Assembly (NCBI GenBank): GCA_002633005.1
Contig: NMRA01000074.1
Coordinates: 294,812-358,811, forward strand
Length of the DNA: 64,000 bases
Direction: 5' to 3'
DNA from: Phoronis australis
Taxonomy: Eukaryota; Animalia; Phoronida
Position numbers and translations under genes: made by a program. Below the pieces are notes generated by a model, which was not told the origin of the DNA, made no database searches, and was given only the letters and a program-made list of their open reading frames with translations. Below, in pieces: positions 44,901 to 64,000 of the stretch (positions are counted from its first letter, which is position 1; each line of letters starts with the position of its first letter).

Positions 44901-45109
44901 GAGGTTTTTTCAGAGATACCACACCGAGAAACTAGTCCTGAGACAGAGGCTGGGGCAGAATCATACCGAGCTGATGGTGTTACTGAAGAAGAGGTTCAAA
45001 ACAGACTTGAGGTGACGGAGAGGGTCAAGGAAATTGTTGACGAAAATGTGTCTAGAGCTCAGATGAAGCAGAAAAAGCACTACGTGCTGAAGAAGTCAAG
45101 GGAAGCAAA

Positions 45110-47052
45110 CAGCATTTTTTCACTCAGGGTCCAAATTTAGATTTTTTATGCTATGCACTCATATTGACAAAATTCCTTCACCTCTGGCAGATTTTTGTAT
45201 GATGATCTTGTTTTAGCATTGGTATTTATGAAATTTACATATTTTAAAGTACAAAAAAATGTTGATCATGGCCAGAGTAATCCTTAATATAGCTGAAAAT
45301 AGCCAGAAATCCACTGTTATATTGTTTCACTGAAATATTGCATGTTTTCAATACACATGGCATTTAATTAAATCAAACATTTAATTGAAATTTGTTTTTT
45401 CATGAACTTAACATGTATTTCTTGTTCTTCTTCAGGTGATTGCAGGTATCTGAATTGTCGAACACAATTTTCAGGCAAATTTACAAAATGTCAATGTTAT
45501 GCAAAACACTTAAATTTGAATATGCTCCTTCTCTTACAGCCATGGTTGAAAAAGAAAAGCATCACTAGTGTTTTGAACTGTTTTTTAATTGTTCATTGTA
45601 TATAGAATTTGATTCAGAAACTACATATTAGTACCAGATGTCCTAGTGATTGGATTCCTCAATCAAACAATATCACCGTCATCTAAGAAAAACTGTGTAT
45701 TCTCCGCAGCCATATCTCAATTCCATTAAATTTTTTCCTTTGATAAAACATAATTGATACTGCAGATTGGGAATCTTGAAGCTGTCTGTGGCCCACAAAA
45801 ATATTAGACCAAGCCCTGGATTTGAATTCATCATTTAGCAAAAAATTTTTCGTATTCTCCGTAGCCCCTGTATTCTCCGTAGCCCCCAATTTATAACTTT
45901 GATTTGTTTGTACATGGTTTGAAAAAACTTGTATGTAGGTGCATTTACTAAGAAAATAGACACAAGCAAACTCTCCAACACACGAAAAATTGCAATTTAT
46001 TTATTTAAGGGTGGTTAATGAGGCAAGTTTAGCCAAAAATTAACCTTTCAACTTTTTCTTTGTATTCTGTGGGTCAAAATTTGAAATCAACTGAAAATTC
46101 TCCTAATTTAATCAGGTGAAATTCAAAAATAACTAGTTGCCATAAACAACCACAATTGAATTACTCCACAGATTAAATGACGCAATGGCTGACACCAAAC
46201 AAGACAAGGAGCGAGAAAGGAAGAGAGAGCAAATGAGGAAGTACAGGGAAAATTTGCAGCAAAACAAAAGGAAATATGCAAGATATAAGCGAAAGGACAG
46301 AGAGCGGAAGAGGAGGGACTACAAGGAATTGGTAAAGACAGTAGACCGGTCAGTGTCACCTTAGTCTCTAAAGCAAGAAAAAAGGCTGGAAGAAAGAATC
46401 ATCAAAAACGGAAAGAAAAGAGCAAAGTCAGGAAAGACTGTGAGAGTGCAAAAGCCATAAAAAAGAGAGGCTGTGAAACGAACCCAAATGTGGAGACTTC
46501 GGATTAAGCTACAGAAAACAGCTGCCACCAAAGATAATGAAACACCTGAACAATCAACAAGCTACATGTCTCGTACAGCAGAATGGAGAGCCATCAAACA
46601 TGCTAGATCCAATCTTCCTAATACTCCAATCAAATGAGCACGAATTGTGGAGAAACTTGCAGGTTAACCTCAGTGTCAACAGCATTTACCAAGTAAAGGT
46701 GCTATTGTGACACCGTTCATTAAGAAGAAACTGGCTCTGGCAGAACATTTTACTCAGTCAATTGCTGATCACATTGAAAAAGTAAAGTTTGATGGGAATT
46801 CCCAAACTATGAAAAAACACTCCTACAAGTTGCTTAAATCTGTGGGGCAAGGAAAAAACAAAACCTATCATCGTCAAAAGCAGAGCCTGAAACGCATGCT
46901 GCAAAGTAATCTTCGCATCAAGAAGAAGTGCATTAGATGGTGGACCTTGGCTACGCACAAGAAATGTCGAGACGAGTTAAATCAAGCAATCAGTCAAAGT
47001 GTTTCGGAGTTTTTTCTACTACCTAGGTTAGTTGTTATGTACCAAACAAGAA
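45110..47052 (+). mobile_element. inserted DNA-transposon fragment with decayed basic ORF (46185-47052) resembling Sola transposase N-terminus
   Basis: KRTQMWRLR..NLPNTPIK*ARIVEKL..KKCRDELNQAISQSVSEFFL..YVPNKK; flanked by 89-bp duplication of host sequence. Confidence 0.5.
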
Positions 47053-47649
47053 AGGGTCAAGGAAATTGTTGACGAACATGTGTCTAGAGCTCAGATGAAG
47101 CAGAAAAAGCACTACGTGCTGAAGAAGTCAAGGGGAGCAAAGTGTTTTGACTTCTCTGTGGGGATGGAAGTATTGGTCATTAAACATGAGGAAACAAGGT
47201 CGGAAGGGGATGTGTCTTGACGACGAATGGAAGGGTCCGTACACCATTGCAGAGCTTGGGGAACAGTCTGCGACTTTGATCGATGGGAATGGTGTACGCA
47301 TGGCCAAAAGGGTACCTGTAGTCCAACTGAAGCCTTATTTGAAGTCATCAGAGCCACGTCAAAGTTCAAAAGACCCTGAAACCACCAACTCCTTTTGTGA
47401 CTCCAAGATTCCTGTGAATCCAGAGGTAGAAAGTCCTTCATCTTTTAACTGCTCTAAGTCATCTGATGCAACAAAAACCTGTTCCTCGTGTGATCTCTGG
47501 TCCAACTTCTGCTTCAGTGCCCACAAAATCAACAGGCGTGGGAAAGCCCCCTATGGATCCATCACACCTCTCCAAACCATCCAGCGCTACCAAGCCCACC
47601 CTCAGCACTCATACTCCATCAGGTGACAAACATCCCAAAACAGGTGATT

Positions 47650-48070
47650 CGGATTGCCCACTTCAGTCCGAAGGCCCAGTGTCTCCACTTATGTCTAATC
47701 TATCTCCATCTTGTGTTGCAGGTTCTACGACAGGTGATGCTGATGATCAACACCAGTCTCCAGCAAAGTCAGTATCTGCAAAACCTGCAGATGAACATTC
47801 AAATGTTTCAGCACTTAAGAACAGAAAAGTACAGCGAGCATGCAGCAAGGCTAATCCAACTTTCATATCTAACCCCTCCAACTTATCTGTACAGTCACCA
47901 TCTGAATGCCCAGTTCCTCCACTTAAGTCTAAACCATCTCTATCTAGTGTCGCAGATTCTGCTATTGGAGATGCTGATTGCCAATACCAGTCTCTAACAA
48001 AGTCAGTATCTGTAAAAATGCACATGAACATTCAACTGTTTCGGCGTGTAAGAGGAGGAAAGTAGAGCAA
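47650..48070 (+). repeat. internal ~170-bp duplication in Ginger linker
   Basis: SEGPVSPLMSNLSPSCVAGS..KSVSAK vs SECPVPPLKSKPSLSSVADS..KSVSVK. Confidence 0.75.
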
Positions 48071-49087
48071 GGGCGTGATAAGGCTGTTCCAACTGTTTTT
48101 CCCATTTGCCAGGTGACGTCATTACCAGCTTTAACATTGGCCGAGAAGCCGACTTTACGAAAAACACTTGACCCGTCATAATCTAAGTGGTTGGATGACC
48201 GGAATTATTGACAGAGCACAATCGATCCTGTCATCTCAGTTTCCCGAATTGTCCAGTTTCCAGTCATGTGTTACACTGACTGATGGTCATTATGGTGGGT
48301 ATATGCCAGAAGAAAATTCCTGCTTTGTACAGATTCTAAACATTAGCAGAAATCACTGGGTCACTTTGGGTAACTTAAGGTTTTGAAAATCACTCAATGC
48401 TGTACAGCTGTATGACAATTTACCAGGTAACAGTGTTCCTCAGATTGTACAAAAACTTGCAGCCGCTGTTTTGTATGATTCAATTGACCCTCAAATTTCT
48501 GTTGAGGTGATGAATATCATGCGACAGAAAGGCTCTGATAACTGTGGCCTGTTTACCATTGCCAACGCATCTGCACTGTGCTTCAGGGATGATCCTCCAC
48601 GCATTGTATGGAAACATAATGAAATACGAAACAAGACATCTGCATAAATGTCTCATTAATGGGAGATTTGAAATGTTTCCACACCACTACAATGCACACA
48701 ATACAAAATTTTCCACCATAAAGTTCTCATTGGATGGATCAATATTTTGTGGGTGCCGTATGCTCAATGACAATAGATGTGAAATAGTGTGGTGTGACAC
48801 CTGCCACGGATAGTTCCACCAGGAATGTGAAAGTCTGGATGAGAATCAGTGAGCACAGGTCACTTCAGATGCATCACCAACATACAGCTGTAAGGGCTGC
48901 ACCTCTGCACCAGCGTAATTGACAGTGCACACTACTGAAAGTACCAACTCGTGCAAATCACCGTTCTTCCAAGCCACCTCAACCTCCTCTACTAATCATA
49001 ATTTAATGGTCTCTGAAGTCCATGTTTCAGATCATGATGCTCTTGTCTGTGGTTAATTCTAGCAGTTTTCATTTTCAGAATTTCATT

Positions 49088-49435
49088 TATGGTTTTCTTG
49101 AAGTCCAATTTCAAATCCTCGCGTTTTATTCAGTTTCAGATTTGTGGGATTTTATGCTTCCTTATTTTGGTGTGAATATAGGAGTTACTTGTGCACGCTT
49201 ATATAAGTATGCTGCCATCTTGGTGTTTTCATTTTGGTTTTTCTTGAAATTCAATTTCAAATCCTCCAGCTTTATTCAATTTTAGATTTTTGGGATTTTA
49301 CGCTTTCTGACTTTGGTGTGCATATACGAGTTACTTGTACACGCTTATATACGTATGCTGCCGTCTTGGTGTTTTCGTTTCGGTTTCTGTTGAAGTCCCA
49401 ATTTCAAAATCCCTTGCTTTATTCAGCTTTACAAA
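49088..49435. repeat. ~145-bp tandem repeat, ~2.4 copies
   Basis: ttttcttgaagtccaatttcaaatcc...gagttacttgt.cacgcttatat..gtatgctgcc.tcttggtgttttc repeated. Confidence 0.85.
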
Positions 49436-49815
49436 ATTAGATACTTGTGATGTTGGATGTGTGATTGTGTGAGAAAATTAAGTTTGCTATTCTATGAATG
49501 GCAAAGTTTGGATGCAGTGGCGAATGCATTTCGCAGAGCAAAGATATTTCCCGACATTTGTGTTTCAGCCTTGACCACGGGAAAAACATTTGGTCGCTCC
49601 TGTCCTTGCATGCACTAGAACAAATGCATTTCTAGGCAGTTGCTTGTCTGAACAACATCACGGGATATTTGCAATACAAATAATATGAAGTAAGTTATTG
49701 AAGTTTGACTAAGGGTATTATGGCAAATGTATTTCAAGAGACACTCCGATGCGAGAAATTACGACATGCCCTCATTGTCCTTATCTTACCACAAAATAAG
49801 CCAACACTTGAAACA

Positions 49816-50118
49816 TGTAGTAAATGTCGACATCACTCTCAGCTGTGGCGTCTCTATGTTGTGATGTCCTTTTTCTTGCAATGTTGGTCTTGGCCTGGTG
49901 CGACACCTGACGCCAGAAGTGCCCAGCAGAGGTCACACTGTCATCACGTGACCAGTCACCTCTCAAGACCATGTGACAAGATCGTCTGGGCCTTCTGGAG
50001 TTTGCGGCCGTCCTGTGCGGACGTGATGTAAGTACACTCTAGACTAAACTCTTTCACCGTGTTCAACAGGCCGAACCTGCTTGACTGTAGCAGTAGCTGC
50101 AGCCATACTAATACAACA
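49816..50118 (+). repeat. 5' LTR of element 1 (303 bp)
   Basis: TGTAGTA...TACAACA followed by PBS; first 171 bp repeated at 54258. Confidence 0.88.
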
Positions 50119-50120
50119 TT

Positions 50121-50134
50121 TGGCATAGTTGGCA
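50121..50134 (+). promoter_or_regulatory. primer-binding site, tRNA-Ser-like
   Basis: TGGCATAGTTGGCA vs TGGCGTAGTCGGCA (two CpG-type transitions), 2 nt after LTR. Confidence 0.7.
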
Positions 50135-50458
50135 CCTATTTCCCGATGTTGGAGCAGCGTGCGTGTCTTTCTGTGGTGGCGGGAAATAAGTTTTCATAAC
50201 TTGTTTTCTCGTGGCCATTTTGACAGTCACGTGCGTCACTGCTTTTGCAGTGCCTGAGTTCAGGTTAACTAGAGTATAGGCTACCAAAGCTTTTGTGGTT
50301 AGTGTAGGAATTGTATATAGGTATTTAATATTGGTTAAAATTGTACATAGTATAGTTTGTTATTCATAATTTTGTACATTAGTTAAATTGTAGAACTTTT
50401 CTAGGAATTCTAGAATAGGTCACATGACCACGTTGTTGCAAAGCCGAGTGTGTTCAAT

Positions 50459-51906
50459 ATGTCTTTTCAAGACAGGGTTCCAATTAACTTGTCTTTCCCA
50501 AGAGTTATTTAAGCTCTCGGGCATGACAGAAGATATTGCCCAAACCCTTCTGGCTTTTCGGCAAAGTCAGCCGATAACCCAGAGTAATGTTAACCACATC
50601 CATTCCGGATGGAGGTTGATGAGGAGTGCTATTTCTGGCATTGATTTCACGCAATATGGTGATGTTCAGTCCCGAGATACCTCTCCTCTGGGTAGTCCTG
50701 TACGTACCCGTTTGCCCCAGGACTTAAATGGCATTGCCCAGGCCTGTGACGGGTTAAACAAATCACTTGTTACAGTGAGAAGTACTCCACTAACCAGGAT
50801 GCTTCTTCGTCTGTGTCTGCCCCAGGTTCTGGTAGCCAAACGGCTGGTCCATCTACCTACACTCGTCCCTATAGTTTAAGGCCAAATGCCCCAAGTTAGT
50901 GTTTCTAGCGGAAAAAGGCAAGTGGGACGATTTTTTTTGGAAATTCCAGGGCTTAGCCAAGGACAATTTATGGTCCGAAGACAAGTGCGTCTCTGAACTA
51001 GGAATGTGTTTGGACGATGTTGCCTTACATTTTTTCCTTAATTTCATGAGAACGAACCCAGACTCTGGTTTCGATGATGTGGTTGCACACATGTCAGAAC
51101 ATTTTTCATCAACTGACTGCACCCAGGTCTTGCACCTTGAATTCCAATACGCCGAGCAGAAGCCGGGAGAATCTACTGAGAACTGGGCATGTAGGTTGAA
51201 CAGCTTATTTTTTTAACAGCCTTCCCGAACCCTTCGGAGCAAGAAAAAGTAGAAACTTGTATTCCGTTTCTCCCTTGGGTTACGAGATAAGGTTGTAGGT
51301 ACGCAGGTGATGAACTCATTCCCTTTGTGCCTAGCTGAGGTAGAGTCTAAAGCTGCATGGTTCGCAACGACTCACCGATTCATGGCGAATCAAAACCGTC
51401 AGTCTGTTTGGTTCGAGGGCTTACCATCGCGTAATGACGAAGCTTCTATCAACCTACTTTCGCAGCACAAAAAACATGCACCTAAATTCTCTCCAATAGC
51501 GTCCTCTCATTCAAACTCTGCAGTTGAGTCTAGGCTGCATGCTTTAGAGTCTCAGATGGCTAAGGTCAATTCTGAAATAGGAGGTCTTAAAGAAGACAAT
51601 GCCCTGATACATCGAGAACTTAAGAGTATGTTCCAGACTATGAGTTCGAATTTTAGAGGCATTACCTCAGATTTGTCGAGGGTAATACAATTGCTGGATT
51701 CTAATCCAAAACCATCTAGATCCCCTCCACTACCTAAGTCCCCCCAAACTTCCCCACAGAGACCTTCAGTAATGTGTTTTAAGTGTGGTAAGTTTGGTCA
51801 CTACCAGTCTGTGTGCCGTAGCCCGCAGTCTGCTAGAATTCGTCACACATCCTTTGGTGAGAAGTCCGATGATTTAAACGAGTTGGGACTGGACGATCAG
51901 GTCTAA
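50459..51906 (+). pseudogene. gag: gag of element 1 (frameshifted): HhH-like N-terminus, capsid-like domain, coiled coil, CCHC knuckle
   Basis: WDDFFWKFQGLA..W..LGMCL..AL.F; AEQKPGESTENWACRL; CFKCGKFGHYQSVC. Confidence 0.85.
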
Positions 51907-51915
51907 CACCAGTCC
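51873..51915 (+). promoter_or_regulatory. -1 ribosomal frameshift signal (T TTA AAC + hairpin)
   Basis: slippery heptamer in gag phase, 6-nt spacer, stem GGACTGG/CCAGTCC; -1 frame open ~70 codons. Confidence 0.7.
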
Positions 51916-52151
51916 AATCTCGTGACGCCACCAGTAGGGTATCCTCAGACTGCCCCACTAAAAAATTCAGTCCCACGGATGGTTTATTAGGTTCATTAAA
52001 TAAAAACATCAAAAGCCTATCGACTAATCTCTTAGACTGTTTTAAGAAGGGAGTTTTCCACTTCTTCTCGAAGTATTTCTGTGCACGATGAGGTGATTGA
52101 ATTACCCATTACTGATACTGATGTGATTGTAAAGCTGTTTCTAGTACCCAG

Positions 52152-53350
52152 GTGGTTGCTAATTCTGAGTCATTAGATATCGTGCACACCCTGGTTCCGG
52201 ATTCCATTTCAGGGGGGTCAAAGGTGCCCCACAACCCTGTCGTTTTGCGAGATCCACCTCCTGAGTTTGTAGACGCTCCTATGGAAACTATTAATATTCA
52301 GGAGGCATTTTCTGGTAACACCCTACACCAACAGGCTGGCCGTCTGCTTCACTGGAGGCAGAAGGTCACCCTTCCACAAAAGGTGAGGGATGCTGGTTCG
52401 CCATACCCTCGGATGTCGTGTGTGGCAAAAGCCCGCCAGCCACCTGGCCTGCCTCTAAAGGGTCAACGTTCATCTGGGGCTTCGCCGTCCGCATCCAAAG
52501 CTAAATCAGGACAAGTCCCTGATTTGGCTATAAATGCCCACTTCCATTTGGATCGCTTGTCAGTATCCTTGGCTCAGCGTCATATCACTGAGACTAGGAT
52601 GCTGACGATCGACCAAATGCTCACTGCCCAGTTGCCACGGGTTTCTCAAAGACCTGTAAGGTTGGTCGGCGGGATTGCAGTTTTCTGCGATGTGGAAAAC
52701 TGGAAGTACGTTGAGGCTTCCCGTTTACCACATGGGTGGAAAGCTGTGGTGGGGAACCACCCCAATGGGTTGGAACAACGAATCCCGGTGTTTTAGAGCG
52801 TCTCCCCCAGCTACTAAAGGAGCCCTTTGGAGCTGGCTTAGGCGAGGTCGGTCTGGAGGCCCGGGATGACTTGGCCACCCAAAAAGAGGCTCTGGAAGAA
52901 ATGGTGCGGATCTTTGCGGAGGTTCGGGCCAACTCCCCCAACCTCAAAAACAAAGTCGTGGTGATCCACATTCGTAGCTCCTCCGACAATCCACGCTTCT
53001 TTGTCTTTGACCTTCTGAAGCGCCACTGTGGTGCAGACTTGGGTTTGCATCTCCATTGTTTTGGAGGTGCGCCCGAGGATGTACTCCGGTGGACGGGGTT
53101 CTTTAGAAACTGCCACTTCGGCTTCGCCGGTCATGTGAACCAGTTTCTAAAGTACCAAAACAAGGGGTTACAAGAGGTTCCGCTGAATCGACTCCTCCTG
53201 GAGTCTGATTTACCGCACCTCGGCAAGCCCCAATGGCGCCCCAATACCTGGGGGGAAGTGGCTGTGGAGGTGGCGCAGCGTTCTCGTCGTTCCCTGCGTG
53301 ACATCCTGGCTGCTTCCACCAGGAATGCCAGGCGGCTTTACCATCTCTAA
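52152..53350 (+). pseudogene. TatD-family nuclease ORF of element 1 (domain ~52524-53350; one frameshift ~52764)
   Basis: NAHFHLD, VGNHP, GLGEVGLE, VVIHIR, HLHCFGG, FGFAG, PLNRLLLESDLPHL, EVAVEVA..STRNARRLY. Confidence 0.9.
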
Positions 53351-53627
53351 CAAAATTGTTAGAAGTGGTTTAGCATCCCGGTGTGCCTGGGTCATAACCT
53401 ATGCCCCAGGTTTTCTCCTAGTCCCTTGGGTAACTGCCCGTTATTGTAAACTCTGAGGCTGACTACGGTCTCTGGATTTGTGCCTTACCCTTGGTCCTAG
53501 AAGAATTGTGGTGTCCATTTAAGTAGTATAAGTAATTAAGTAGCATACTGGTCCATTATTTTTATATAGTAGAGTTTATTTGTTAAAACTATATAGTATA
53601 TTTTTGTTATAAGTTATGTTTCCATAC

Positions 53628-53631
<4 letters not shown>

Positions 53632-53662
<31 letters not shown>
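53632..53662. repeat. (TA)n microsatellite
   Basis: seen directly. Confidence 0.95.
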
Positions 53663-53666
<4 letters not shown>

Positions 53667-54243
53667 TATTTATATATTCAAGACTATACTTTCTACAGCA
53701 TTACGTATTAGTTGATGCTATATAGTTTATTAACTTAAGTTTTCCATAGTCTACGTATGTTATGAAAGACTATATCATTTTACATTTCACTATATCACTA
53801 CTAAAGCATTACTGAATACTCAACTTATGGCCAGTATGCTTTTCATTGTTCAGTTTTTTCTTAACTTATTAAAAAAAAATGTATATATACTCTTACCAGG
53901 TCATCACCAACAAACGGAGTGTTGTCATAATTTCCATGCCCCATGGTACTTGTGTTAGTGGGGCATATTTTTTTTTTTGTCTTTCAATCATCATGTTCCA
54001 ATATTCCGTTGGATATATGCTATGACTGAGTCTCTTTAGTTTTTGTGTTTTTTTTGGTAGGGGGGAGAATAGTTATATTTAGTAATAATCAGAAATTGGT
54101 ACTTTACTAGAGTCATTCCACATCACTTTAGTTATGGGGTCTAAGTTCTTGTTACTGATTTTTTTAGCCAAGGGTTTATGTTTAGATGTTGGGAATGACG
54201 TTCGCCATTTGCTATAAGGCTTAGGGCTCCATTCCTTTTCTTT

Positions 54244-54428
54244 AGGGAAGGGAGGAATGTAGTAAATGTCGACGTCAGTCTCAGCTGTGGCGCCTCTATG
54301 TTGTGATGTCCTTTTCATTGCAATGTTGGTCTTGGCTTGGTGCGACACCTGACACCAGAAGTGCCCAGCAGAGGTCACACTGCCATCACGTGACCAGTCA
54401 CCTCTCAAGACCATGTAACAAGATCGTC
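54244..54428 (+). repeat. PPT (agggaagggaggaa) and truncated 3' LTR of element 1 (54258-54428)
   Basis: about 9 differences in 171 bp vs 5' LTR (hand count). Confidence 0.9.
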
Positions 54429-54430
54429 AT

Positions 54431-56044
54431 AGGCGTACTGCTTATACTCATAGAAATGAGGAAGGGATAGACAGTAGGGACTGGATAACCTTAAGCACGT
54501 GGGGTAGACTGGAGGATGGTAAGGTACCTTATGGTAATTTAAGGGGTCTGGAAAGTCCAGTAGGGTCACCTGTTCAGCGGGGTAGGATTCGGTCTTGTGA
54601 AGAAGAAAGAAGTCGTCTCTCAGACGATGATAGCTCTATGGGAATTTCACCCGGAAGGAGGGGGCTTCGGTTAAGATACTCGCGAGGAGGTGAGGGGGCC
54701 CGTAGGAAGAGTCCTGAGGTGAAATTTGCCAATCGTTTTGTAGTCTCGCCAAAACGGGAGGATAATAGAGGTATTGATTATAGAGTGAGACGTAGTTCAC
54801 CCAGAGATTACTCACCTAGGAGAGAATATTACAGGAGTCCGCCGAGAAGGTGGCGTTATGTAATGGATAGGGACGAGTATGATGGGGGACATAATCCGTG
54901 GTGGTATAGGCATACTCGGGAGGAGGGCCTAGATAGGGTGGAGCGTAGAGAGTACGATAGGGATTATGATGAGGATAGATATTCTCCGCGACGCCGTTAC
55001 TATGAGCCACGGGATGACTTTAGAGAGAGAAGGGGAGGAAATAGAGGCTATAATGCCAGGGGATATAGTACACAGGTACCACCAAAAAACATAAAGTTTG
55101 ATGGGACTGGGAATTATAGAATTTTCAAGCAACTGTTTAGGAGGTGGACCGGAGCTAGAAGAATGACAGCGGGTGAGGCTTTAGACTCTTTTATGTATTG
55201 TCTAGAAGGGAAACCTTTGGATTTTGTGGGGGAACTGGGAGAACAAGTAACCCTGAATGAAGTTCTGGAGGTGTTAGACAGTTATTACGGGGATGAAGGG
55301 AGAGCATCAACAGCTAGTCAAATATTAGGAACAGCTACTCAGAGGACTGGAGAATCCATTAGGGAATGGGCCATGAGAGTAATGACTCTGTCTAGACAAG
55401 CGTTTGGGGAATTTGGTTCGGAAGAGTTAGTACATCGGGAAGCAATAACTCAGTTTTGTGTAGGTGCATTAGATGCAGAGGCAGGGGAATTTGTGCTCTT
55501 GAAGAAACCCCGGGTATTGGAGGAAGCCAAATCTATGATGGAGGATAAGCATAGGACACGGGAGAGAGTAAGACAGAAACCTGGTCGGGGGGCTAATGTG
55601 CATTCAGCTTACTTAGTGAAGGAAGATTTGCCCTTCAGGGAACAGGTTGAGGATAATTCTTATCGGATAGCTTCGGTAACAGAGGCTAAATCCAGCTCTG
55701 AGAAAATGTTAGCTCAGTTAATTAAGGCCGTAACTGAACAGACTCAGGCGATACAAAAACTTGTGCTGAAATCTCCGGGGTCGTTCAGGGGGGATAAAGA
55801 TAAGCCGTTGGTTCAGAATGGACAGAATCAAAGTAGATGGGGGTCTAAGAAAGCTTCTTCAGGAAATCAGCATAGAACAAATGAGGGGGATCGGAAGAGA
55901 GATACCTCGAGAGAGTCGAGGAAATGTTACAGGTGCCAAAAGGAGGGTCATTTTGCACGGAACTGTCCTGATAAGATTAAGAAGGAAAATCTACCGGAAA
56001 ACTCCAGAGGGACCACTGTAGGAGCCGCGCAGAAGTCCCAGTAG
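54431..56044 (+). CDS. gag: gag of element 2 (5'-truncated; RS-rich region, capsid, CCHC)
   Basis: frame open from the junction; PKNIKFDGTGNY, CLEGK.LDF, QRTGESIREWA.RV, QFCVG, CYRCQKEGHFARNC. Confidence 0.9.
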   Translation, partial: RRTAYTHRNEEGIDSRDWITLSTWGRLEDGKVPYGNLRGLESPVGSPVQRGRIRSCEEERSRLSDDDSSMGISPGRRGLRLRYSRGGEGARRKSPEVKFANRFVVSPKREDNRGIDYRVRRSSPRDYSPRREYYRSPPRRWRYVMDRDEYDGGHNPWWYRHTREEGLDRVERREYDRDYDEDRYSPRRRYYEPRDDFRERRGGNRGYNARGYSTQVPPKNIKFDGTGNYRIFKQLFRRWTGARRMTAGEALDSFMYCLEGKPLDFVGELGEQVTLNEVLEVLDSYYGDEGRASTASQILGTATQRTGESIREWAMRVMTLSRQAFGEFGSEELVHREAITQFCVGALDAEAGEFVLLKKPRVLEEAKSMMEDKHRTRERVRQKPGRGANVHSAYLVKEDLPFREQVEDNSYRIASVTEAKSSSEKMLAQLIKAVTEQTQAIQKLVLKSPGSFRGDKDKPLVQNGQNQSRWGSKKASSGNQHRTNEGDRKRDTSRESRKCYRCQKEGHFARNCPDKIKKENLPENSRGTTVGAAQKSQ

Positions 56045-56768
56045 AATCAGAAGGCTCAGAATCAGATCAGGAACTTGAAATGGATCAGAGTAGGCAATCT
56101 GATATACCTGAAACGTTTTTGATGTCAGTAGTGCAGCATTGTAAGGACATACAGCAGGGTACTGAAACGGTTCTAGATAATGACACAGTATGTGAGAACT
56201 TAGCCAGTTGTGTTGTAACCGACATGGGTAGTAGGCGTGGGTGTAATCGGTTTGCTACTCCGTTATTGGTTAACGGTGAATTTATACAGGCTATTGTAGA
56301 CTCAGGAGCTCAAACCACGGCAATATCTCGAAAATGGGCTACTAAGTTAAAGTTAGATAACTTAACATCAGGGAAAGTAGTGAAGTTGCAGACAGCTAAA
56401 GCTGGGGAGGCAATGAATGCCGAGGTATTAGATAAGGTGGTAAGGATAACTTTGGGCGAACGAGACTATGAAGCTGAATTGTGGATAATGGATCTGTCTG
56501 AGGATATGCTGCTCGGACAGGATTTCATGAGTGAATATTCTATGTATTTAGATGGGGAATCTCATGAAATGGTAGTTAAGGAAATGGGGGAGCGAATTCC
56601 AGTTTCCTGTTATAACCCTTATTGTCAAGTAGGACCAAGGGTGGCACTGTTAAGGGCCATGGATGAAGTAACCATAGAGCCAAGAACAGGACGAAATATT
56701 GTAACCAAAGCTTCATGTAGGTTACGGGAATTTATAGTTGAAGACGAACTATGTAATCAGTTACAGGT
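55996..56768 (+). CDS. pol: pol N-terminus / aspartic protease, reached by -1 frameshift at G GAA AAC
   Basis: -1 frame open from 55996 into AIVDSGAQ...MLLGQDF; GGGAC/GTCCC hairpin follows slippery site. Confidence 0.85.
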
Positions 56769-56866
56769 NAGTTAAAGTTAGATAACTTACCATCAGGGAA
56801 AGTAGTAAAGTTGCAGACAGCTAAAGCTGGGGAGGCAATAAATGCTGAGGTATTAGATAAGGTGGT

Positions 56867-57514
56867 GCAGCAGATGTATGACAAGGCAGTGCAGGAATTG
56901 ACGGGATATGAAGCAGCCCGATTAAAAAGCATGTTAATTGAGTTCAGGGATGTGTTTGCTGAAACAGAATTTGATTTAGGGACATTTTCAGCGGTAGAAC
57001 ACTGCATTGAGTTGGAGGCTGGAACGCGTCCAGTGAAACAAAAGATGCGGAGAACTCCATTAGGCTTTGAGGCTGAAGAGTGGAAACAATTGCAGGCCAT
57101 GTTAAATGCAGGGATCATAGAGCTATCCTTGTCACCATGGGCCAGTAATCCAGTTTTAATACGTAAGGCAGATAGGAAATGCCGTTATTGTGTAGATTTC
57201 CGGGCATTGAATGATAAAACTGTGAAAGATTCATGGCCTTTACCTTTAGTATCTGATTGTTTTGATTTACTTCAGGGTAATCAGTTCTTTTCGAAGTTGG
57301 ATGCGAATAGTGCGTATTATCAGATTCCAATTAAGGAACAGGATAGAGTAAAGACCGCATTTATAACTAGGTATGGTCTGTTTCAATTCCGGAGGATGGC
57401 AATGGGATTGAGTGGGGCACCATCAAGTTATTCACGGGCTATCGGTCTAGTCTTGAAAGGCATAAATTGGAATACGGCATTAGCATTCTTAGATGATATT
57501 GTGGTACTTGGGAG
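56867..57514 (+). CDS. pol: reverse transcriptase (partial, runs into gap 57515-57847)
   Basis: SPWASNPVLI, RYCVDFRALN, FSKLDANSAYYQI, KTAFIT, AFLDD. Confidence 0.95.
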
Positions 57515-57847
57515 NNNNNNNNNNNNNNNNNNNNNNNNNNNNNNNNNNNNNNNNNNNNNNNNNNNNNNNNNNNNNNNNNNNNNNNNNNNNNNNNNNNNNN
57601 NNNNNNNNNNNNNNNNNNNNNNNNNNNNNNNNNNNNNNNNNNNNNNNNNNNNNNNNNNNNNNNNNNNNNNNNNNNNNNNNNNNNNNNNNNNNNNNNNNNN
57701 NNNNNNNNNNNNNNNNNNNNNNNNNNNNNNNNNNNNNNNNNNNNNNNNNNNNNNNNNNNNNNNNNNNNNNNNNNNNNNNNNNNNNNNNNNNNNNNNNNNN
57801 NNNNNNNNNNNNNNNNNNNNNNNNNNNNNNNNNNNNNNNNNNNNNNN

Positions 57848-58358
57848 AAGAAGGCAAAGCTCTGGGAAGATCAAGCCAAGGCCATGGGGAAGACTGTCGA
57901 GCACCTTCAAGGGTGGTTCAAGTCCCTCCGAGACACTCACACCCGTCTCCACAAGAAGAAGAGCGGTGACGGCGCCCCGGAACTGACAGAGAGGGAGCAG
58001 TGGGTGAAGGCAAACTTCAGCTTCCTCAAGAGTGTGGTCCGCCATCATGCTGAACCCGTCAACAGTGTAAGTATAACAAATATTAATATTAATATTTATT
58101 TATATTAATTTTATTGTGATTACAAAGCATTGAATGTGCCTTGTATTTTTGCCTTGTATTTTAACAATCAACTGTCATAATTGCAGGTGAAGGTGACCAT
58201 TGCAGCACACAGCGGGGACCTCGAGGCTGCCTGTGCAGACATCGTGGTTGATGACGAGAGCACGCCCTCCACTGTCCCCTCCTCATCCTCACAGCGCAAG
58301 GGCAAGCGTGGCCAGGACGATGACCAGTTGCTGCAGTCACTCCAGAAGAGGGTGCTCC
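57848..58358 (+). mobile_element. foreign fragment: spliced MADF/Myb-like gene, probably Harbinger ORF1
   Basis: KAKLWEDQAKAMGKTVEHLQGWFKSLRDTHTRL..KSGDG..LTEREQWV..FSFL; intron 58067-58186; GC-rich codons unlike pol. Confidence 0.65.
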
Positions 58359-59924
58359 AATCAGGGAGGAATTAGTGCAGCAAGACAATCAGACCTAACA
58401 GACCAACAAGGGGGAACTATGTTGGAATTGGTGGAGAAACAACGTAATGATCCTGACTTAAGATTTATAATATCCTGGCTTGACGAGGGGGAGTTTCCTA
58501 GTCAGGAGGAATTGTTTAGGTCTTCTGAGAAGGCTAAAGCTTATTGGTTAAATAAGGAAAGTTTTAGCTTTCTAGAAGATGGTATTTTAGGAATGCGGGA
58601 TCATAAGAGCTCTCAAAACAAGTTGATTGTAGTTCCACGGGAGTTGGAGGAAGAAATCATGAGATTGAACCATGATTTGCCTTTGGCGGGACACCAGGAA
58701 ATGGAACGAACACGATCTAAAATTAGGCTAAAGTATTATTGGAGGGGAATGAGAGAGCGCATTCGAAAGTATGTTGAAGGTTGCATGGTGTGTAACCAAA
58801 ACAAGGGAAGAGTTCGAAAAGCTCGTACTCCAATGGTAAAATACCAAGCCGGAGCACCAATGGAAAGAGTTCACATAGACTTTTTGGGACCATTACCTAG
58901 AACGTCAAGGAGGAATGAGCATGTATTAGTGGCGGTAGACCAGTTCACTAAGTGGGTAGAATGCATTCCTTTATCAGACCAAACGGCGGAAACCACCGCT
59001 ACGGCAATGGTCGATAATATTTTTTCAAGGTATGGGTGTCCGCTTCAGCTGTTCTCTGATAGGGGCTCAAATTTTCAGAGTGCAGTGTTTAAGGAAGAAT
59101 GTAAGTTCCTCAGAATTCATCAGACACATACAACTGCCTATAGGGCAAATGGACAGGCGGAAAGGGTGAATAGGTCAATGATGAATGCAGTTCGCTGTTT
59201 TGTGGGGGAATTTCAGTGTGATTGGGATTTGTATGTACCAATGATTGCAGGAGCACTGAGAGCATGTGTGAATCGTTCGACAGGTTTAACGCCTAATATG
59301 ATGGTGTTGGGTAGAGAAGTAAATACTCCAGCGGAAGTGGCTTTCAGGGTAAGTCCGGGGGTAGGAGTCTTGGAGCCGAAAAGGTATGCTGATGAGTTGG
59401 TGGATAAGATGACACGAGCTCATGAACTTGCTCGGGAAAATTTAGGTACAGCTCAGCTTAGGGCTAAAATTGATTACGACATCAGGGTTAATCAGTTTGG
59501 TTATGCAGAGGGAGATGTTGTAAGAGTGTTTCGGGATGCTGTACCACAGGGAATGAGTAGGAAACTGTATCCACCATGGTCAGAACCGGCGATAATAGTA
59601 GCTAAGATATCGGATCGCTTATTTAAGGTAAGGTTTAAGCGATCGGTTGGCACGTATAACCATGATAAGCTGAAGAGATGTAAGGATAGGGTATGTCCTG
59701 AGTGGATTCAACGGTTAAAGGGTGATCCACTGCTATTAGCTGCTGAAAAGGTCAAAGCATTGTCTACGGGGGTACAATTGTATTGCATATGTAATCAACC
59801 TGATGATGGCTCTACAATGGTACAATGTGATGACTGTAAACAATGGTTTCATGCATTGTGTTTTGGGTTGAACCAAGAGCAGGCTATGGCTCTTCCTGAA
59901 TTCAAATGTTCATTATGTGAATGA
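58359..59924 (+). CDS. pol: integrase (HHCC-DDE) with C-terminal PHD finger
   Basis: HDLPLAGH..CMVC, HIDFLGP, SDRGSNF, NGQAERVN; YCICNQPDD..VQCDDCKQWFHALC..FKCSLC. Confidence 0.93.
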   Translation, partial: NQGGISAARQSDLTDQQGGTMLELVEKQRNDPDLRFIISWLDEGEFPSQEELFRSSEKAKAYWLNKESFSFLEDGILGMRDHKSSQNKLIVVPRELEEEIMRLNHDLPLAGHQEMERTRSKIRLKYYWRGMRERIRKYVEGCMVCNQNKGRVRKARTPMVKYQAGAPMERVHIDFLGPLPRTSRRNEHVLVAVDQFTKWVECIPLSDQTAETTATAMVDNIFSRYGCPLQLFSDRGSNFQSAVFKEECKFLRIHQTHTTAYRANGQAERVNRSMMNAVRCFVGEFQCDWDLYVPMIAGALRACVNRSTGLTPNMMVLGREVNTPAEVAFRVSPGVGVLEPKRYADELVDKMTRAHELARENLGTAQLRAKIDYDIRVNQFGYAEGDVVRVFRDAVPQGMSRKLYPPWSEPAIIVAKISDRLFKVRFKRSVGTYNHDKLKRCKDRVCPEWIQRLKGDPLLLAAEKVKALSTGVQLYCICNQPDDGSTMVQCDDCKQWFHALCFGLNQEQAMALPEFKCSLCE

Positions 59925-60163
59925 TTCACGGTGAGAACGGGATGAGTTGGGAAGAGGGATACTACTCGATGAACATATTTAGGTAAACGCCTGGGAAAGG
60001 TGTGGCTAAAACTCTTCGTCTATAAATTCAGCTTTCTCTGATTATTAAGCATGCTTGTTCACCGGAGGAGATGTTTTCTACAAATACACGAATAAGCGAA
60101 AAGCAGAAGACATTCCTTTCATCAAAATGACTGTTAAGCTGCTATTCTATTGGTTATTGTAGA

Positions 60164-61332
60164 ATGTCCAATGCACGCAGAGAGCAGTTGTGGCGCGGGG
60201 TAGCGGACAGCTTGATGGAGCTGCTGAAGGGTGACGCGGGTGCTTCAGGTAGTCAGCGCGAGGAGACGCCGCGACGGGGAAGGTCGCCCACTCGCCGGAG
60301 GAGCAGGTCACCCCGGGAGAGAGGATCCTCCAGAAGATCGAGGGAGAGATCGGGCCGAAGGCAACAACGGGGAGGTCGGCGCTGGGAGAAAACCCAGAAG
60401 AAGGACCGCAGCCAGGGGGGACCGTCGGGGAGTCATATGAAAGATCCGGCGAGGGGATGTCCTCACTGCCTTCAGGACCCCAGTGACATGGCGAAACATG
60501 TCCTGGATTGCCATTTACCTCGAGGGATCCTGCTGGGAACAGGACCGGGGGACCAGGAGCAGTCCCGGAAAAGAATGTGGTTCCTCCACGACGTGGCCAA
60601 GGTTGTGGATGAGAAGCCCAAAGATTTGATGAGACGGGTCGAAGGGTGCCCGTTCTTATCTAACCTGGAAACGCCAATGGAAGAGGAAGTTCAGCTGATC
60701 TGCCAGCACGTGGGTTTGGAGAGGCCGAGCAGTCTATCTTTGGGGAACGTGCAGAGCTTGCCTCTTCTACTGCACCCAGAGGTTTTGGAGACACTTCTGC
60801 GGTCATTCACACGGTCCCAGCTCATTAGGGTGGCTGGGAGAAGGTGGCCAGCAGGGAAATGCATCCCATACAGGTGGTTAGGAGAGTGTATGGCGGAGCA
60901 GCCCATGGAGACGTCCTACGCTGAGGTAGTTCGTGGGAAGCCGGCGTCAAAGGGTGCGTCGCGGATGAGTTCGGCAACGAGCTCATCAGGGGTTCGTCCC
61001 CTTTCCCAAGGGAAGGCTACCGGGAGCGGGGAAGCGACGGCGGTGTCCAAGGAATCTTCAGGGGCCTCTTCGTCGAGTAACTTGTCAGGGACGACGGAGA
61101 GGGGATCAAGGGAATCGCCTCATCAAAGGTTGATGAAGACCATGCGAAGTTCCCAAGGGGGTGAGTTGAACTTTCCTGATAGTAGGGATGATAGTGGTAA
61201 AGTTCTGAAATCATCTTTCTTACAGGTGGAACCTCAGGTACCAGTAGAGGTAGCGGATGCACACTTTCACTTAGATAGGGTGATTCAAAGGCATCGGATG
61301 TCATCAGAGGAAAGTGCTCTAGATGTGTATAG
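60164..61332 (+). CDS. ORF3 N-part: RS-rich, C2H2-like finger, Ser-rich linker, start of TatD domain
   Basis: CPHC-x10-H-x4-H; VADAHFHLDR; cut by N at 61333. Confidence 0.8.
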
Positions 61333-61333
61333 N

Positions 61334-62032
61334 GTTAATTAAGGCCGTAACTGAACAGACTCAGGCGATACAAAAACTTGTGCTGAAATCTCCGGGGTCG
61401 TTCAGGGGGATAAAGATAAGCCGTTGGTTCAGAATGGACAGAATCAAAGTAGATGGTCTAAGAAAGCTTCTTCAGGAAATCAGCTTAGAACAAATGAGGG
61501 TGATCGGAAGAGAGATACCTCGAGAGAGTCGAGGAAATGTTACAGGTGTCAAAAGGAGGGTCATTTTGCACGGAACTGTCCTGATAAGATGAAGAAGGAA
61601 AATCTACCGGAAAACTCCAGAGGGACCACTGTAGGAGCCGCGCAGAAGTCCCAGTAGAATCGGAAGGCTCAGAATCAGATCAAGAATTCCAGGTGTGGAA
61701 ATATGTCATGACTTTCAACGAGGGGTACCATTAGAATCCTGCCCTGTGGAGGCTGTTCAAAATGCACAAAACATCATCGGGAATGGGCAAAATTCTATAG
61801 TACAGTGGATGATGTGGTTCCTTTAGGTGCTAAGGTGAAAACAACTACGGAGGATCCAGTGGATATAATCGCATCTAGTTCTTTATGGAACAGGGATATG
61901 GAAGATAGTGAAACCTGGGGTATACAAGTAGTAACTAGGCGACAGGAGAAAATAGGTCCCGGGGGAGAGGTTGCCTTATCTAATCAGGGAGGAATTAGTG
62001 CAGCAAGACAATCAGACCGGACAGACCAATAA
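61334..62032 (+). other. misplaced pieces of element 2: duplicate gag end (61334-~61683) and RNaseH-integrase linker (~61680-62040)
   Basis: copy of 55717-56072; SRIPGVEIC..LPCGGCSKC..W..VDDVVPL, overlapping 58359-58417 at its end. Confidence 0.8.
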
Positions 62033-62405
62033 GGGGGAAATTCTATGGGAAATAGCTAGGGATTGTTTGAATAAAGCTACACCCATTCAATTGCATTCTT
62101 TCCGTGGGGGTCCTCAAGTGGTGGAAAAATGGTTAAAGACATTTCCTAACACCTACTTCTCAGTTTCAGGAGTTGGACTAGGTCACATTAGGGGGGACCG
62201 AGCTCGCGGGATACGAGCTATTCCGTCAAAGCGACTGTTGGTGGAAACGGATGCACCTTATAATCATCCAAGTGGCACTGGAATGCATCAGTCCCATTCC
62301 GTAGTAATAGGGGAATGGTGCAAGCAAATAGCGGAAGTCCGGGGAGTTAGCCTGGGTGAAATTTGCAGACTGTCGCGGGATAATCTAGCGTCCTTTATTC
62401 ATTAA
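62033..62405 (+). CDS. ORF3 C-part: C-terminal half of TatD domain
   Basis: IQLHSFRGG, W..FPNTYFSVSG, IPSKRLLVETDAPY, IAEVRGVS..SRDN. Confidence 0.85.
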
Positions 62406-62685
62406 GAAAGGGAGAAAAAGTAAGAGTAAGGGATTATGTATGGCATGGGGAGAATCACTGCTAGTAGTATTGAATTTGGATGTTAATGTCTTTATTCAAG
62501 TATTGTTTCCTGTGCTTTTTCATCAGACTCGGGGAGTCAAAGGGCTCTTTTCAGGCGATCCATAAGGGTATAATTGGGAAAAGTATGGGTATTTAGTCGT
62601 GATTCTTGTTGTTTGTCCATACATGTGTTACAGGTATGGGATGGCACCACTCCACAAGAGAAGGGGATGCATCATACCTTACATA

Positions 62686-63059
62686 CTCTTACTATGTTTC
62701 AGAACCAGCCAAGAGGACCCAGTAGAGGGTAACTGGGAAGGGGTGGCTGGGGGAACTTATACGGGATTTGAATAGGGATGGATTGGAGTATAACTGGGTA
62801 AAATTAAACATCGGAACTGCAATTTGGACTATGTTGATATTGGGTATATTAGATAGTCTGACTCTTATATCNCTCTTACTATGTTTCAGAACCAGCCAAG
62901 AGGACCCAGTAGAGGGTAACTGGGAAGGGGTGGCTGGGGGAACTTATAGGGGATTTGAATAGGGATGGCTCGGAGTACAATTGGGTAAAATTAAATATCG
63001 GAACTGCAATTTGGACTATGGTGATATTGGGTATATTAGATAGTCTGACTCTTATATCA
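62686..63059. repeat. ~186-bp duplication across single-N join (62872)
   Basis: near-identical adjacent copies. Confidence 0.85.
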
Positions 63060-63231
63060 TGGCTGAGTAAGAGAATCTTTTATGGGATGATTGGCTAGAT
63101 TATCTAGGGAAAATGTCATAGGGATAGTCCGGCTGAGGTTAATTTTTAATAAGTTTTAAACAACTGGGTTGGTACCGCAATTCCGATTAACATTACCAGG
63201 GAAAGCTCCAAAAAATAGAATGGGGAGGAAA

Positions 63232-63580
63232 TGTAGTGAGCCAGTGCGTATGTTACGTGAGGTTTAATTGGATAGTCAGGTTCGCGGGCTTCTCTGCCGT
63301 CTTGGCTGGGATTGGAGAATAGATGGAACCTGCTGGGTAACCTGATGTAACGATGACGTCACGACCTCGTGGTTCACTCGTCCTTCGCACTTGAAACTCG
63401 AGAGAGACAAGACGAACTCTGAAAAGACTCCAACGCATATCTACTATCGACTCTAGAGACTTTTCCATAACCAGTTAGGTAAGCTGTCTTATAGTTCTAG
63501 TGTATACTTGGGAACCCAATGGTCGTCCGCCTAAGCATAAAACCGGCTTGTTGTCGTACTCACCCAATCATTCCACTTCA
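63232..63580 (+). repeat. 3' LTR of element 2
   Basis: follows PPT agaatggggaggaaa; TGTAGTG...CACTTCA; no second copy to confirm the right end. Confidence 0.65.
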
Positions 63581-64000
63581 AAGTTATGATCTGAATAGGA
63601 TTTGATTTAACTCTCACAAATATATAGTATTCGTTGATTCAAACGTTTTCTTTTACTTATGCCGAGTTGTTCAACTGTGCATTGCTTTTCGGCAGCCATT
63701 TTATAATGACACCTATGGTCGTCATATGCTGCCGCCTTTTGAAAGAACAGCAAACCACACAGAAAAAGGCCAAGAAAATAGTGGAAAGTGGTATACAGCA
63801 ATTCTACTTCAACCACAAACTGCTTTACTAGTATGATATCGATTTTTAAATCGATTAAAATTGATTTAGAATTTCAGTTCTGGAAAATAAATCACGGCTG
63901 AGCCCTGGATTGTTTTATTCCAGATATACCTTACTTATTTCTGTTTGTGACCTCTTTATTTGACTTTTTGCTCTTGTTGTACTTAACACCACTTATCTTT

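Follow-up and report, generated by a model that had tools for sequence, protein, structure and literature searches.

TatD-family nuclease genes as third-frame cargo of a Ty3/Gypsy retrotransposon lineage in marine invertebrates

Most Gypsy retrotransposons encode gag, pol and sometimes env, and enzymatic third open reading frames (ORF3s) are known mainly as recent, family-specific captures in rotifers. Can such an enzyme also be a lasting trait of a lineage? The question is raised by a 64,000-nucleotide stretch of the phoronid Phoronis australis (assembly GCA_002633005.1, contig NMRA01000074.1, positions 294,812 to 358,811 of the forward strand; hereafter the window), in which two Ty3/Gypsy long terminal repeat (LTR) retrotransposons, element 1 and element 2, each carry a gene for a TatD-family nuclease. 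An earlier note on this DNA had proposed that a Gypsy lineage stably carries TatD, which we find strongly supported by related loci, a converse test, tree congruence and the ratio of nonsynonymous to synonymous substitution rates (dN/dS). We regard both window elements as decayed members of one Ty3/Gypsy lineage, and the TatD ORF3 as a new variant of enzymatic ORF3 cargo. That the nuclease acts on the element's own replication intermediates is, by analogy with cellular TatDs, a proposal that we consider evenly balanced.

Both window frames match the Pfam TatD_DNase profile, bearing out the assignment in the note (cut-off 27 bits; element 1 at 52715-53347, E 7.6e-19, 68.5 bits; element 2 at 61956-62402, E 1.9e-15, 57.4 bits). 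Relatives were collected with a distant match, P0001 (782 aa), which yielded 219 cluster representatives at E <= 1e-30; a motif pattern taken from these representatives returned 74 metagenome and 25 genome-bin loci. The TatD profile was matched by 82 of these 99 loci, and the other 17, with neither a TatD nor a retroelement match, were rejected as chance matches. An integrase, a PHD finger or a reverse transcriptase (RT) lies upstream on the same strand in 23 of the 24 TatD loci with at least 4 kb of upstream sequence, and in 33 of 37 at 2.5 kb. All 60 relatives scanned exceed the curated TatD_DNase cut-off. Several loci (L088, L092, L094, L099 and L102) have unbroken gag, pol and ORF3 frames, and protease, RT, RNase H, integrase and PHD are present in all three complete relatives scanned. 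Five contigs that hold gag, pol and TatD are circular, with overlapping ends and a single collapsed LTR, as expected when the two LTRs of a repeat collapse in assembly; in L059 the order is TatD, polypurine tract (PPT), TG start, primer-binding site (PBS), gag. Many of these loci come from few host-associated samples and do not represent independent hosts.

By their protein records, named members of the family belong to bivalves, gastropods, sea urchins and a sea star, and are labelled TATDN2, YcfH-like, YabD-like or TatD. In the tree, scallop and clam proteins named TATDN2 group with element-borne TatDs. TatD contigs in symbiont bacterial bins are probably host contamination. A homologue search with the element 1 TatD half gave one match among longer proteins and none near its length. 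In viral contigs no element-type TatD was found, either with P0001 or with the motif pattern, and the alignment gave 13 ordinary TatDs that were used as outgroup. One protein, P0110, joins a sulfatase to an element-type TatD half and is probably a gene-model fusion with an inserted element.

The converse test started from integrases, irrespective of TatD, in the 9-Mb bacterial bin behind L088 (G001), where 150 of 165 candidates were scored. At least 118 integrase matches of retroelements lie in this bin. It also has about 21 contigs with element-type TatDs, next to two ordinary bacterial TatDs, and is heavily contaminated with animal repeats whose ORFs are named as bacterial hydrolases. Among the scored candidates, TatD was present on 13 of 13 contigs with an integrase match that runs through the PHD finger, and on one of about 96 other integrase contigs (a hand count; some contigs end too early). 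Twenty PHD- and TatD-associated integrases, that of element 2 included, form one branch with a Shimodaira-Hasegawa-like approximate likelihood ratio test (SH-aLRT) support of 100. The exception is L143/L159, which has no PHD and falls on a neighbouring branch; its TatD has diverged, with the motifs intact. Because TatD is present there without PHD, it may predate PHD in the lineage. L143, L121, L145 and L125, all from G001, also form a second group of diverged TatD ORFs of about 500-590 aa with a short N-terminal domain directly beside TatD, which may mark an earlier stage of the lineage. No ORF3 is visible in L158, L160 and L161, which end 0.8-1.4 kb past the integrase, so that a label 'noTatD' is unsafe for them.

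For 20 elements the integrase tree was compared with the TatD tree. The two agree in 10 of 17 splits (in 2000 random comparisons, 0.32 on average and 4 at most), and all seven well-supported splits of each tree are found in the other (Mantel rho 0.64, p 0.0001). This congruence shows vertical inheritance, not function. For dN/dS, 21 TatD pairs at 60% identity or more were used, of which 13 were saturated and three more had dS of at least 2. The five pairs with dS below 1 gave 0.11, 0.11, 0.15, 0.22 and 0.47, and the integrase gave 0.07 in the single pair having both genes; on these alignments TatD is under purifying selection. In a tree built without host TATDN1/2/3, both window TatDs fall inside a 48-row branch apart from 18 prokaryotic or viral TatDs (SH-aLRT 95); within it each sits on a long branch of its own, and their placement is weak. 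TatD cargo is thus strongly supported as a lineage trait by sequence comparison.

Artefact or neutral passage, with host TatD retrocopies caught between elements or joined to them by misassembly, is in our judgement very improbable. The window is visibly scrambled, with scaffold N joins at 56769, 57515-57847, 61333 and 62872, and the apparent junction between the elements at 54428 may be unsound as well. However, the same gene order occurs in dozens of other contigs, related contigs contain intact single-exon ORF3s of 580-1100 aa, and in a contig from a sequencing run the TatD of element 2 is whole; the co-divergence with integrase, the purifying selection and the 13 of 13 PHD-integrase contigs also speak against an artefact.

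The features of the two elements are collected in Table 1. Element 1 has the order LTR-PBS-gag-TatD-PPT-LTR without pol, and its LTRs are paired (49815-49986 against 54257-54428 by self-BLAST and alignment, 95% identity, 9 differences in 172 nt), which upholds the claim that its TatD lies between LTRs. This copy is damaged, with gag in three pieces and the 3' LTR cut short, and it lacks pol, which the note had missed. Because the pol profile found no pol remnant between gag and TatD, we consider this copy non-autonomous. The gag pieces match the lineage gag profile (E 1e-22 and 2.5e-19) and, weakly, Pfam PNMA and zf-CCHC. The PBS-like motif is presumably of the tRNA-Ser type; comparable sites occur 3' of TatD in L092, L095 and L107, and ARAGORN gave no usable tRNA for its confirmation. 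The TatD motif series is complete in the translations, as the note had it, but divided between two frames by a frameshift near 52760-52795 (tblastn with P0001); all six ligand positions (HxH, bridging Glu, two His and terminal Asp) are present over the two frames. The profile of the N-terminal domain of the family ORF3 had no match in element 1.

In run X2, depth over the interior of element 1 is 810-1140, compared with 37-50 on single-copy pieces, an approximately twenty-fold difference that does not equal copy number. Because the deep X2 contigs of this family do not share the TatD break of the window copy, the break looks specific to that copy. Even depth is the sole sign that pol is absent from the family as a whole, since none of the listed pieces reaches from gag to TatD. 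Layouts with gag and TatD in which pol is missing or deleted are also seen in L031, L069 and L146.

Table 1. Features of the two elements (window positions)
Feature	Position	Strand	Basis or remark
Element 1 5' LTR, TG...CA, 303 bp	49816..50118	+	CA end 2 bases before PBS-like site
Element 1 PBS-like motif	50121..50135	+	at most 3 mismatches to a known PBS motif
Element 1 gag, three pieces, capsid-like region and CX2CX4HX4C knuckle, broken	50523..51906	+	profile matches
Element 1 ORF3, class II (HxH) TatD without N-terminal zinc-finger domain, one frameshift	52281..53350	+	Pfam TatD_DNase
Element 1 PPT	54244..54257	+	read directly; abuts TG of 3' LTR
Element 1 3' LTR, shortened at start of element 2 gag region	54258..54428	+	95% match to 5' LTR
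Element 2 gag; 5' LTR, PBS and 5' end not in window	54429..56044	+	zf-CCHC E 1.4e-6; lineage gag profile E 1.1e-41
Element 2 aspartic protease and RT; scaffold N at 56769, ends at N gap 57515-57847	55981..57514	+	Pfam
Element 2 integrase with C-terminal PHD finger	58356..59924	+	Integrase_H2C2, rve, PHD
Element 2 ORF3 first part: Arg-rich region, C2H2-type zinc-finger/helical domain (~60443-60880), linker, TatD start with HxH	60164..61332	+	
Misplaced sequence: 97% copy of gag 55717-56073, then pol stretch belonging between RT and integrase	61334..62033	+	self-BLAST, contig joints
Element 2 ORF3 last part, C-terminal TatD half	62034..62405	+	Pfam TatD_DNase
Element 2 candidate 3' LTR start, unpaired, begins TGTAAC	63346..63501	+	sequence start, loose ends, depth

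Element 2 has the layout gag-protease-RT-integrase-PHD-ORF3(TatD), with the order of protease, RT and integrase conserved in the window and the RNase H region within the gap. Pfam matches are gag-asp_proteas (E 8.6e-12) and RVT_1 (E 7.3e-15), and comparison with PDB places the Ty3 RT nearest (E 3e-26), with caulimovirus-type and HIV RTs ranking lower. The motifs DAHFHLDR, HSFRGG and LLVETDAPY reported in the note are present in the translations, but the TatD itself is divided by the assembly scramble, which the note had missed: the piece with DAHFHLDR breaks off at the scaffold N at 61333, the window lacks the central part of the domain, and four of six ligand positions are visible, the other two falling in the missing stretch. 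By self-BLAST, the misplaced gag repeat spans 61334-61686 at 97% identity. One X2 contig connects 57514 to 61679 with 750 letters in between, and another connects 61332 to 62034, uniting both TatD halves. From its record of 1330 letters less 733 and 188, about 409 letters would lie between these two points, and both halves would be in one frame. The N-terminal domain was recognized (E 1.1e-12) by a family profile built without the element 2 sequence. Depth of element 2 in X2 is 135-245. A position inside paired LTRs is therefore shown in the window for element 1 only: the 3' LTR candidate of element 2 is unpaired, direct reading found no PPT directly abutting it, and the window contains no 5' LTR of element 2. 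Neither element has both of its ends in the window.

The view of the note that the two elements did not arise by local duplication is supported, as self-BLAST found no DNA likeness between them and their TatDs lie on separate long branches. Both gags have the CX2CX4HX4C knuckle, which is not the Troyka pattern as defined in PMC12440569, the available text of which mentions neither PHD nor nuclease. Despite their deep divergence both gags also share a short N-terminal YG...SP(L/V)GSPV(R/Q) pattern (50523-50790 and 54460-54580), which was not found in the related loci. Between the N gap and the integrase of element 2 lies a foreign piece (57848-58355) with a weak MADF DNA-binding match below cut-off (E 0.008), possibly a Harbinger-type transposon fragment inserted in the pol of this copy; an X3 contig extends only 30 bases beyond its junction with the integrase.

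Full-length ORF3, which lies between the integrase with its PHD finger and the 3' LTR, consists of an Arg-rich region, a conserved zinc-finger/helical domain that the note had not noticed, and TatD. The model of a family member, P0003 (predicted local distance difference test score, pLDDT, 95.5), shows a TIM-barrel amidohydrolase fold with TM scores of 0.72-0.79 to solved TatD structures, and its best matches are E. coli TatD, S. aureus YcfH and T. maritima TatD (E 1e-17 to 1e-16). Glu, His, His and Asp equivalent to the metal ligands are conserved in 125, 122, 123 and 121 of 127 aligned proteins, which were selected from 155 for HxH, so that HxH itself is conserved by construction. The available text of PMC10085689 describes the roles of the bridging Glu, the two His and the terminal Asp in the TatD family. 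From sequence and model, ORF3 is predicted to be an active two-metal nuclease of the class II TatD family. The ORF3 TatDs score far below the NCBIfam cut-offs for TatD, YcfH, YjjV and QatD, and identity with QatD of the Qat anti-phage system was rejected (30-69 bits, cut-off 230). The N-terminal C2H2-type zinc-finger/helical domain is common to 104 family proteins and confidently modelled (pLDDT 91). Neither Pfam nor a Foldseek comparison with PDB and BFVD (E 0.001) gave a match for it, the best VIA Z was 4.1, and an Atlas search returned nothing at 0.9 or above; these absent matches do not prove a new fold.

There is little likelihood, in our view, that the TatD fold is a nucleic-acid-binding or scaffold module with incidental catalysis. 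According to the available text of PMC10085689, some TATDN1 ligand mutants keep activity, so the motif logic is loose; in the ORF3 family, however, the ligand positions are at least 95% conserved although the proteins are only 30-45% identical, and all five motif patterns are present in 33 of 43 locus TatDs.

We return to the proposed catalytic role on the element's own replication intermediates, for which cellular relatives provide the analogy: in the available texts they are 3'-5' exonucleases and AP (abasic-site) endonucleases (PMC10085689), and TATDN2 degrades R-loop RNA (PMC10711561) and acts in germ cells (PMC12709183). ORF3 would have been captured once from a cellular TatD gene and would be made as a separate protein. 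Its N-terminal domain might tether it to element RNA, cDNA or chromatin, and the TatD domain could then shorten 3' ends, incise abasic sites or remove the RNA of RNA:DNA hybrids. In this way ORF3 would finish or clean the products of reverse transcription and integration in germ-line nuclei. Element 1 would be a derivative without pol, in which gag and a shortened TatD are retained, and would be mobilised by autonomous relatives. Because RNase H is present in the pol of all three complete relatives scanned, TatD is no simple replacement for it.

RNA runs matched by species label were oriented by host minus-strand exons, where the first mate lies on the plus strand, so that plus marks minus-strand RNA. 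Reads of the element 2 family are almost all antisense in X5 and X6, whereas the interior of element 1 is covered by sense reads in X7 (depth 3-9) and by reads of mixed orientation in X5. Because most element reads are less than 99% alike, most of this RNA comes from other copies. Element 2 (54429-63050) has a very strong sense skew of G over C, 0.31 in the integrase and 0.56 at third positions, far above its relatives. As an R-loop signature of the lineage, G-skew was rejected (median 0.05 in TatD elements and 0.09 in others, 11 and 18 integrases, p 0.19).

Several of these results weigh against the proposed role. The RNA of the element 2 family is almost wholly antisense in both runs, and G-skew gives an R-loop role no support. 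Complete relatives have RNase H and most Gypsy elements of G001 do without TatD, so that replication does not require it. Both window copies are broken, and the conservation of HxH in the 127-protein set was built in by selection. With host TATDN1/2/3 outside the tree, the donor and the single capture are tentative, and the loci stem from few samples whose hosts are not independent.

The antisense RNA also bears on another reading, which we hold only tentatively, namely that ORF3 is a counter-defence enzyme that serves all copies in trans by destroying triggers of host silencing or sensing, such as excess cDNA in the cytoplasm, antisense or small-RNA precursors, or hybrids formed at silenced loci. 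The existence of such RNA for the element 2 family fits this reading, as do a separate ORF with its own putative targeting domain and the close association with a PHD finger, a domain known to read histone marks. Pol-less elements that retain gag and TatD, here and in L031, L069 and L146, fit as well, but this retention may be passive, with TatD beside the PPT, and L069 and L146 are decayed. In its boldest form, which we regard as doubtful, an ancient Gypsy clade across protostome and deuterostome marine invertebrates would have fixed a targeted nuclease, a new zinc-finger/helical domain plus TatD, as a trans-acting counter-defence against host small-RNA silencing or nucleic-acid sensing, valued enough that pol-less elements keep it, and many annotated invertebrate 'TATDN2' genes would be these retrotransposon ORFs. 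We think it improbable that ORF3 limits copy number or restricts competitors by degrading the cDNA of related retroelements. A single-stranded DNA exonuclease, as described in the available text of PMC10085689, would suit this task, and the two families reach only modest depth in this genome, some 3-5 and some 20 times that of single-copy sequence; yet G001 has about 96 other integrase contigs beside at least 13 TatD-bearing ones, and no exclusion is evident.

Among known systems, Juno and Vesta of bdelloid rotifers come closest: in the available text of PMC5408684 they carry a DEDDy 3'-5' exonuclease or a GDSL esterase as ORF3, that is, a non-env enzymatic frame after pol with intact catalytic residues and, in part, 3'-5' exonuclease cargo. 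The TIM-barrel TatD has an unrelated fold, and the word 'TatD' is absent from that text. Their ORF3s are family-specific, recent and repeatedly gained, whereas here one ORF3 marks a whole integrase clade with which it co-diverges; its relatives come from two phyla, and its TatD is joined to an additional zinc-finger/helical domain. Class II TatDs (TATDN2, TATDN3, YcfH and YjjV; available texts of PMC10085689 and PMC10711561) share the TIM-barrel, HxH, bridging Glu, two His and terminal Asp, and TATDN2 also has a long N-terminal extension; ORF3 differs in being single-exon, multicopy, inside retrotransposons and on its own branch. PMC6962438 names TATDN2 only in a legend. The mollusc Ty3/Gypsy elements (Metaviridae; clades MolGy1-16, Mag and others) in the available text of PMC6238403 resemble the present ones in protease-RT-RNase H-integrase order, CX2CX4HX4C knuckle, TG..CA LTRs and hosts. 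That work classifies by RT and RNase H, its main text contains 'PHD', 'TatD' and 'ORF' zero times, and one of the clades named there may be identical with the present lineage. Chromoviruses likewise have a chromatin-reader domain at the integrase C-terminus (available text of PMC12440569), but a chromodomain and not a PHD finger linked to a nuclease ORF3. We found no description of TatD as LTR cargo in full-text literature, a search that excluded most subscription papers, supplements, Repbase, Dfam and GyDB; a Repbase entry for such an element may exist.

The window is animal DNA, and besides the two elements it contains a host gene and repeats. An intron-rich, multi-exon gene on the minus strand (355-37607, start codon at 37607), which matches motifs of HEATR1/UTP10, has the elements about 12 kb upstream; within it, a second copy of 26359-28815 stands at 28940-31000, beyond an N gap, and is probably a duplication made by the assembly. 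Decayed integrase fragments of another retroelement (44340-44900) lie in 44100-48810 together with a 92-bp repeat at 45018 and 47050, and weak Ulp1-type protease matches at 48387-48644 are followed by a Cys-rich end. Positions 63502-64000 form a repeat, probably a SINE or MITE (short interspersed or miniature inverted-repeat transposable element), that reaches very high depth (about 78,000 in X2), has many loose ends and gives abundant RNA from both strands. Rfam gave nothing in 49000-64000.

For annotation these frames are a trap: mollusc and echinoderm genomes list them as host TATDN2, YcfH or TatD genes, contaminated symbiont bins list them as bacterial hydrolases, and the misfiled ORFs can distort TatD phylogenies and gene-family counts. 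For the biology of the elements, a DNA-repair-type nuclease has been retained by one integrase clade through deep divergence, under selection and beside a PHD reader, which makes the TatD ORF3 a defined and testable case of a retrotransposon accessory enzyme.

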